This document shows, piece by piece, positions 29,320 through 30,200 of a DNA stretch of 64,000 nucleotides. The notes beneath the pieces were generated by a model. It made no database searches, was not told the origin of the DNA, and saw only the letters and a program-made list of their open reading frames with translations. The stretch is from the NCBI RefSeq assembly GCF_988243305.1, contig NZ_OZ547136.1, one strand, 5' to 3'. Position 1 is the first letter of the stretch; each line of letters begins with the position of its first letter. Position numbers and translations under genes: made by a program.

Positions 29320-29496
29320 CCGTAGTATCAAAAGTTTTGCCGATTTTAGAATAAACGATTAATTATTGCACAATCGGTATCAAATAGACTTTAAGCGCTC
29401 ATCCAGACATCACCTGTTTTATTTCAGTATCTTACAGGTGATTTCACCTCCTTTCACTAAAACCCTCGTTGGTATCAAATGATTCACCTGGTTACA
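29320..29496. repeat. prophage terminal region with three GTATCAAA repeats (candidate transposase binding sites)
   Basis: GTATCAAA at ~29324, ~29377 and ~29472; element ends ...CA at 29496. Confidence 0.5.
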
Positions 29497-30200
29497 TGTA
29501 GGTTAACCACTTTCGGCAATTGATCGGCAACGGAACGCGACACGGTCACGCCAATCAGTTCGCTTTCAGGCATCAGGTGTTCCAGCCCAACAGCCAGTCC
29601 GGCGTGAGTTCCAGCACTGCCCGACGCGACCACCACCGACGAAATATTAACCGCCCCTTCACACTGTTGCGCGATTTCCAGCGCACTCTCCACATAACCT
29701 AGCGCGCCCAGAGCATTAGAACCGCCAACCGGAATGACATACGGGCGAAAGCCTTGTGCTTCGACTCGCGTCGCCAGCTCTTCCAGTTGGGCATTGGGAT
29801 CGGTCAGTGCGTCGCACATTTCAATCTGGGTATTGAACAGATCCAGCAACAAACGATTGCCGTTGGTTAAATAGTTTTCTGCGGTTGTGCCAATAGGATT
29901 TTCCAGCAGCGCCACGCAGTGCAGACCGAGTTTCGCAGCGACTGCGGCAGTCTGGCGCACATGGTTAGACTGGATCGCCCCAGCAGTAATCAGCGTATCG
30001 GCACCTTCACGCAGAGCATCTGCCGCGAGAAATTCCAGCTTACGTAATTTATTGCCGCCCATTGCCATGGGAGTGACGTCATCCCGTTTGATGAAAATTT
30101 CCCGTCCAAGATAATCAGAAAAGCGCGGCAGATATTCGAGCGGTGTTGGCGCGCCGATAAACTCCAGCCGTGGAAAACGGGTTAAATTATGCAGTGGCAT
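29484..30200 (-). pseudogene. dcyD: dcyD, 3'-truncated by prophage insertion
   Basis: [27 protein letters not shown]... matches DcyD through ...LPKVVNL, then four phage-end codons and a stop; about 238 of ~328 codons retained. Confidence 0.85.

Follow-up and report, generated by a model that had tools for sequence, protein, structure and literature searches.

The window analyzed here, a stretch of 64,000 nucleotides from contig NZ_OZ547136.1 (NCBI RefSeq assembly GCF_988243305.1), contains the beginning of dcyD, the gene of D-cysteine desulfhydrase. The gene is located on the minus strand with its ATG at 30198–30200 and its reading frame proceeds from MPLHNL...LPKVVNL into HVTR and a stop codon, which are encoded by phage DNA. 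This raises the question of which element interrupts dcyD, where the remainder of the gene resides and by which rules the element was inserted. The data presented below make it highly probable that dcyD was disrupted in codon 235 when an Sp18-type Mu-like prophage of about 38 kb, complete or nearly so, transposed into the gene in this strain of E. coli.

The boundary between prophage and dcyD was determined from both sides. Window positions 29100–30300 were used as query in megablast searches of 5,426 complete E. coli genomes. The dcyD sequence was matched in 5,377 of these genomes and the match invariably started at query position 398 (or 401), i.e. at window position 29497. A query coverage of at least 80% was reached in 0/5,426 genomes, and the same insertion in dcyD was present in none of them. 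Pairwise alignment with an intact dcyD locus (NZ_AP022298, designated L001) revealed identity rightward from position 29497 and unrelated sequences leftward. At this point, the intact locus reads ...CAATCGCCTGT|TGTAGGTTAACC, whereas the window reads ...CACCTGGTTACA|TGTAGGTTAACC. According to blastn, window positions 29497–32654 correspond to L001 3001–6158 with 99.5% identity, and no match inside the window was obtained for L001 1–3000, which comprises sdiA, tcyN, tcyL and the 3' part of dcyD. Viewed from the phage side, positions 27500–29496 are matched over the full length in 89 genomes with about 99.3% identity. These matches stop at position 29496 and are followed by unrelated host genes, namely creC, agaF, mdtH, citF and a slipin gene. 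As the host-side and the phage-side comparisons both break at this site, the junction 29496|29497 is genuine and its position is defined with single-base precision. The prophage ends exactly at 29496 (...GGTTACA) and the dcyD-homologous sequence begins exactly at 29497. Insertion of a prophage inside dcyD and a phage terminus at position 29496, with TG at the left phage end, had been proposed by the initial annotation. Both proposals hold, and this end is common to other insertions of the element.

The 5' fragment of dcyD measures 704 nt, corresponding to 234 codons and 2 nt, and therefore the break falls into codon 235 of 328. Previously, the frame had been considered intact up to codon ~238, but this number counts the residues of the hybrid ORF that reads into the phage end. 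In the public collection, the exact 238-aa hybrid product is encoded by a single contig (Logan ERR15423954 contig 40; 75,630 bp), and the locus on this contig (L007) is 100% identical to window positions 19484–40200. The insertion site in dcyD is new and appears to be unique to one sample.

According to the initial annotation, the 3' part of dcyD should be found outside the window, behind the far end of the prophage, and the two halves of the gene were expected to abut with a 5-bp duplication. We predicted the right junction under a 4-bp and a 5-bp duplication model, using the right-end sequence from other Sp18-type insertions. In both models an ORF extends from the phage end in frame into DcyD residues 235–328, and the two products differ by a single residue at the joint (I or L). 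The fusion protein predicted by the 4-bp model (MKCKSVSKKSPRYIQQAIAKEL...) has a single occurrence, on contig 46 of the same sample (ERR15423954; 11,867 bp; designated L011). The fusion protein predicted by the 5-bp model (...SPRYLQQAIAK...) is not on record in the protein collection searched. The 5-bp model was thus rejected for the dcyD insertion.

Contig 46 encodes a Gin-like invertase, a DUF6645 protein, Mom, the fusion ORF, TcyL, TcyN, SdiA, UvrY and UvrC. The fusion ORF (L011 5135–5461) is composed of 14 residues originating from the right phage end (MKCKSVSKKSPRYI) and DcyD residues 235–328, and is located directly upstream of tcyL. The junction sequence on this contig is ...GGTATCAAAAAAATCGCCGCGCTATA|TACA|ACAGGCGATTGCG and leads into the 3' part of dcyD, tcyL, tcyN, sdiA and uvrC. 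When reverse-complemented to the orientation of the window, the contig matches the intact locus at L001 1–3004 with 100% identity. Positions L001 3001–3004 (TGTA) are present at both junctions and therefore represent a 4-bp target-site duplication. Hence, the missing part of dcyD indeed lies beyond the far prophage end, in the same assembly, and the two halves abut as anticipated, but the duplication encompasses 4 bp rather than 5 bp.

The prophage was delimited by comparison with its closest relative, the prophage residing in citF of strain JE86-ST02, which comprises 38,237 bp (L002 4973–43210). Window position 1 is equivalent to L002 13761 and maps about 8.7–8.8 kb from the right end of the JE86-ST02 copy, which places the right end of the prophage outside the window. 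Contigs 40 and 46 contain 32,641 bp and 5,174 bp of phage DNA, respectively, adding up to 37,815 bp as compared to 38,237 bp in the JE86-ST02 prophage, and a gap of about 0.4 kb remains near the invertase gene. The assembly break is located inside the prophage beside the gene of the Gin-like invertase (L011 108–680), and contig 40 extends past window position 1 by about 3.1 kb. The break was likely caused by the inverted repeats of an invertible tail-fibre segment, both orientations of which possibly coexisted in the culture.

Related prophages have sizes of 38.2–40.6 kb and their early, middle and late modules are arranged in Mu order. The classification as a Mu-like transposable prophage, as suggested initially, agrees with the presence of a MuA-type transposase, MuB, ner, a repressor, gam and mor. 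The main features are compiled in the table. The MuB-type ATPase gene adjoins the transposase gene, and the DDE core of the transposase yielded weak matches to Pfam rve (E about 0.02). Additional prophage genes code for Kil, Gam, GemA, Mor, lysis functions, the gpT head protein, sheath and baseplate proteins, the Gin-like invertase, Com and Mom.

Table. Features of the interrupted dcyD locus and of the prophage, in coordinates of the window.
Feature	Position	Strand	Details
5' dcyD fragment	29497..30200	-	codons 1-234 and 2 nt of codon 235 (328 codons in total); 704 nt
Hybrid ORF, 238 aa	29484..30200	-	DcyD 1-234 + HVTR from phage end
Target-site duplication copy, TGTA, 4 bp	29497..29500	.	second copy abuts right prophage end in contig 46
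Sp18-type Mu-like prophage, left about 29.5 kb of about 38 kb	1..29496	-	98.7% over 24 kb to JE86-ST02 citF copy
Prophage left terminus	29471..29496	-	inward 5'-TGTAACCAGGTGAATCATTTGATACC; terminal repeat (L1) at nt 18-26 from tip
Two more TTTGATACY repeats, putative transposase-binding L2/L3	29376-29384 and 29324-29332	-	pattern search
Repressor (c-like), divergent from early operon	28651..29235	+	phrog_3037 transcriptional repressor, E 2.3e-59; 194 aa in L007
Ner-like early regulator	28235..28483	-	phrog_769, E 3e-26; HTH protein in relatives' annotation
MuA-type DDE transposase, 696 aa	26143..28233	-	Pfam Mu-transpos_C 3.5e-17, HTH_Tnp_Mu_1 1.6e-5; phrog_310 1e-211
MuB-type AAA+ transposition ATPase, 313 aa	25128..26069	-	48% to D108 B, E 5e-96; PF09077 Phage-MuB_C; phrog_296

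The rules of insertion become apparent from a comparison with other Sp18-type copies. In five of them (L002 to L006), 4-bp repeats flank an element that starts with TATAGCGCGGCG... and ends with ...CACCTGGTTACA in the orientation of the window (5/5). The duplicated bases are CGAA in citF (L002), GTCG in the slipin gene (L003), CATA in creC (L004), ATCG in agaF (L005) and GTAC in mdtH (L006). Alignment to the intact targets confirmed that exactly 4 bp are duplicated at mdtH, creC and agaF. Apparent 1-nt indels emerged in a search with concatenated flanks, and direct alignment to the intact targets identified them as spurious extensions over the segment borders. The T preceding ATAGCG belongs to the phage, because it does not vary, in contrast to the fifth host base, which is different in each of L002 to L006. 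The same ends are present in LC727881 and LC727895 (Mu_JNE082796 and Mu_JNE122137), in which GATG and AGAG are duplicated, respectively, and the 4-bp repeat regions in both records already carry the annotation "duplication due to insertion of Mu_...". Altogether, a 4-bp duplication in combination with the same ends was observed in 8/8 insertions (dcyD, citF, slipin, creC, agaF, mdtH and two Stx phages).

The left terminal sequence is identical in the 7 other independent insertions, whose flanks diverge beyond it. Read inward, the right terminus is TATAGCGCGGCGATTTTTTTGATACC (TATAGCG...), corresponding to ...GCGCTATA-3', and in all 8 insertions the element terminates with TA. Among the Sp18-type copies, the prophage ends are 99–100% identical. 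In L004, the T-run at the right end contains one extra T, and this end was located by blast and missed by a regular expression allowing up to 6 mismatches. The pattern of a 4-bp duplication and CA/TA ends is solid and has already been annotated by the GenBank depositors.

Both prophage ends carry the motif TTTGATACC at nt 18–26. A search of the window for TTTGATACY detected 4 matches, compared to 0.65 expected by chance, and 3 of these, each on the minus strand, form a cluster no more than 173 bp from the terminus. Three matching sites are also present at the right end. These repeats are putative transposase-binding sites, which appear to be arranged like the L1–L3/R1–R3 sites of Mu.

Could the interruption of dcyD nonetheless result from a canonical Mu-type insertion, that is from an element with TG...CA termini that duplicates 5 bp? 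Such termini are present in Mu and D108, which produce a 5-bp duplication (PMC8705779), and the left end of the prophage in dcyD does start with 5'-TG (CA on the plus strand of the window). The initial annotation had assumed TG...CA at the two ends; the TG at the left end is borne out, but the right end is ...CTATA-3' in 8/8 insertions and carries no CA. Moreover, 4 bp are duplicated when checked against the intact targets, the fusion protein found in the protein collection is the one of the 4-bp model and not that of the 5-bp model, and the transposase is merely 23% identical to the A protein of D108. A canonical Mu insertion is thus refuted by the junction sequences.

The relationship to Mu and D108 is nevertheless evident at the level of organization. 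As in these phages, a divergent repressor gene is followed by ner-A-B-kil-gam, mor, the late genes, the invertase gene and com/mom. The MuB proteins are 48% identical, each end contains three repeated sites, the left end starts with TGTA and insertion is quasi-random, accompanied by a short duplication. In contrast, identity of the transposases is limited to 23% over 424 aa, the end repeats are TTTGATACY as compared to the Mu consensus ...RCGAAAR annotated in D108, the right terminus is TA instead of CA, the duplication encompasses 4 instead of 5 bp, and similarity at the DNA level is confined to about 600 bp at 71%. Accordingly, the prophage lacks the TG...CA termini, the 5-bp duplication and the close sequence similarity that define canonical Mu (genus Muvirus: Mu, D108, SfMu). 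It does possess the hallmarks of a Mu-like transposable phage (saltovirus), i.e. a MuA-type transposase, an adjacent MuB gene, insertion at many unrelated sites with a short target duplication and no att site, and the corresponding genome size (about 36–40 kb) and order, and it shares the near-identical ends and early region (99.3% over 2 kb, 89 genomes) of the Sp18 type. Judged by these sequence comparisons, "Mu-like" is a description of the architecture and presumed mechanism of the prophage and not of membership in genus Muvirus, since the identity of its transposase to the D108/Mu enzyme amounts to only 23%.

Also very improbable is an explanation by an assembly chimera or by a prophage remnant beside a deleted dcyD 3' end. 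The locus is known from a short-read Logan assembly in which the prophage is split over two contigs, a situation in which such an artefact might be suspected. However, the two junctions, although residing on separate contigs of one sample, are exactly reciprocal and the host sequence continues across them with a 4-bp overlap. They follow the 4-bp rule observed in 7 other genomes, the phage DNA on both contigs sums up to 37.8 kb as compared to 38.2 kb in the closest relative, and the 3' part of dcyD is present rather than deleted. Finally, use of dcyD as attachment site by a site-specific temperate phage, for which nothing speaks beyond the location inside a gene, can be dismissed with near certainty, as the left end encodes a MuA/MuB pair in place of a visible integrase, the insertion is present in 0/5,426 complete genomes while the same phage ends occur at 7 or more other unrelated sites, and no att-like repeat exceeding 4 bp is found at the dcyD insertion.

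Transposition of an Sp18-type prophage is the best explanation for the interruption of dcyD, and relatives of this prophage occupy many different loci. Sp18 of E. coli O157:H7 Sakai is a Mu-like prophage, and insertion sites are strain-specific (PMC2669165, PMC7430833, PMC10132054). The early/immunity region and the left end of the prophage in dcyD are 99.3% identical to the O157 copies, and the terminal sequences, the 4-bp duplication and the gene order are as in its Sp18-type relatives, including LC727881 and LC727895. The late region exhibits about 80–90% identity to most copies, but 98.7% to the JE86-ST02 copy, which in turn differs in the repressor region. The prophage is thus a mosaic, its early region matching the O157 copies and its late region the JE86-ST02 copy. 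It differs from all these relatives by the dcyD site, which was seen in none of the 5,426 complete genomes, and each of the two fusion proteins is restricted to one contig. Kind of element, family and 4-bp duplication are already in public records and only the insertion site is new.

More distant relatives were identified through the transposase. The transposase of Mannheimia phage vB_MhM_3927AP2 belongs to the same broad family and is 45% identical, while the transposases of JBD-, MP- and Ab30-named transposable phages of Pseudomonas, which we take to represent the D3112/DMS3 group, are about 30% identical. The Pseudomonas B3/D3112-like and Mannheimia phages differ from the prophage in dcyD in their hosts, morphogenesis modules and duplication length. 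The size of the duplication is known to vary among transposable phages, with 5 bp for Mu and 6 bp for B3 (PMC8705779).

How could the observed junctions arise? By analogy to Mu-family DDE transposases, the MuA-type transposase would bind to the repeated sites in both phage ends with the aid of the MuB-type ATPase. It would expose the 3'-OH groups of the two terminal A residues (...TTACA-3' left, ...CTATA-3' right), and the phage 3' ends would become joined to target strands cut 4 bp apart. Gap repair or replication would then leave the 4-bp duplication TGTA. Both ends have retained the terminal A, with TA at the right end where Mu has CA. In the framework of the established Mu mechanism, in which transferred strand and target strand determine the sequence of the product, the constant A at the right junction and the four duplicated bases point to a 4-nt stagger. 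In the literature searched, coverage of which was incomplete, we found neither a description of a 4-bp duplication by Mu-like phages nor a biochemical study of a Mu-like transposase that acts on CA/TA termini with a 4-bp stagger. It is conceivable that the Sp18-type transposases constitute a mechanistically distinct Mu-like branch, characterized by a 4-bp stagger and asymmetric termini (CA-3' left, TA-3' right), but we regard this idea as tentative and rather doubtful. For annotation of the boundaries of Sp18-type prophages, the 4-bp duplication and the TA right terminus should be used; application of the Mu rule (5-bp, TG...CA) would shift the right boundary by one base.

The insertion divides DcyD into residues 1–234 (extended by HVTR) and 235–328, and thereby parts Lys51 in the 5' fragment from Tyr261, Tyr287, Thr288 and Thr315. 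The numbering of E. coli DcyD matches that of the Salmonella enzyme (StDCyD), in which Tyr287 stacks on PLP and Tyr261, Thr288 and Thr315 line the active site; the Y287F variant is inactive with all substrates (PMC3344862). As Lys51 is split from these residues, DcyD is almost certainly inactive in this strain. The predicted loss of the enzyme, which had also been put forward from the outset, is thus well supported by the separation of active-site residues. It would represent a strain-specific D-cysteine desulfhydrase knockout by a known mobile prophage family and is of little import beyond the strain.

The insertion may also concern the neighbouring cystine ABC transporter genes tcyL and tcyN. 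In the intact locus, the start of tcyL follows the dcyD stop codon at a distance of 14 bp. As the insertion has placed about 38 kb between these two genes and the 5' region of dcyD with the promoter region upstream, they plausibly experience a polar effect. Read-through into tcyL/tcyN that originates at the mom end of the phage is conceivable.

A few additional features were noticed in the window. An ORF of 115 aa at 20128–20475 (plus strand) is located on the strand opposite to the neighbouring early/middle phage genes, and the homologous spot in JE86-ST02 is occupied by a gene for a DUF2513 protein (L002 33881–34291). The ORF may be an accessory (moron) gene. A tRNA-like element at 11516–11595 (plus strand) is oriented antisense to the phage late genes and is flanked by the genes of virion morphogenesis and head morphogenesis. 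It scored 31 bits against the Rfam tRNA model (gathering score 29), exclusively in a scan of short stretches; ARAGORN and the whole-window Rfam scan reported no tRNA in the window and both missed this element. The fold shows a 4-nt "anticodon" loop, its z-score of -0.8 is unremarkable, and PGAP calls the homologous spot in the relative "tRNA-OTHER" (L002 25267–25346). The host part of the window has ordinary E. coli content, including the genes of the small RNAs DsrA at 53922–54008 (minus strand, 102.5 bits) and RseX at 62345–62434 (plus strand, 97.8 bits).
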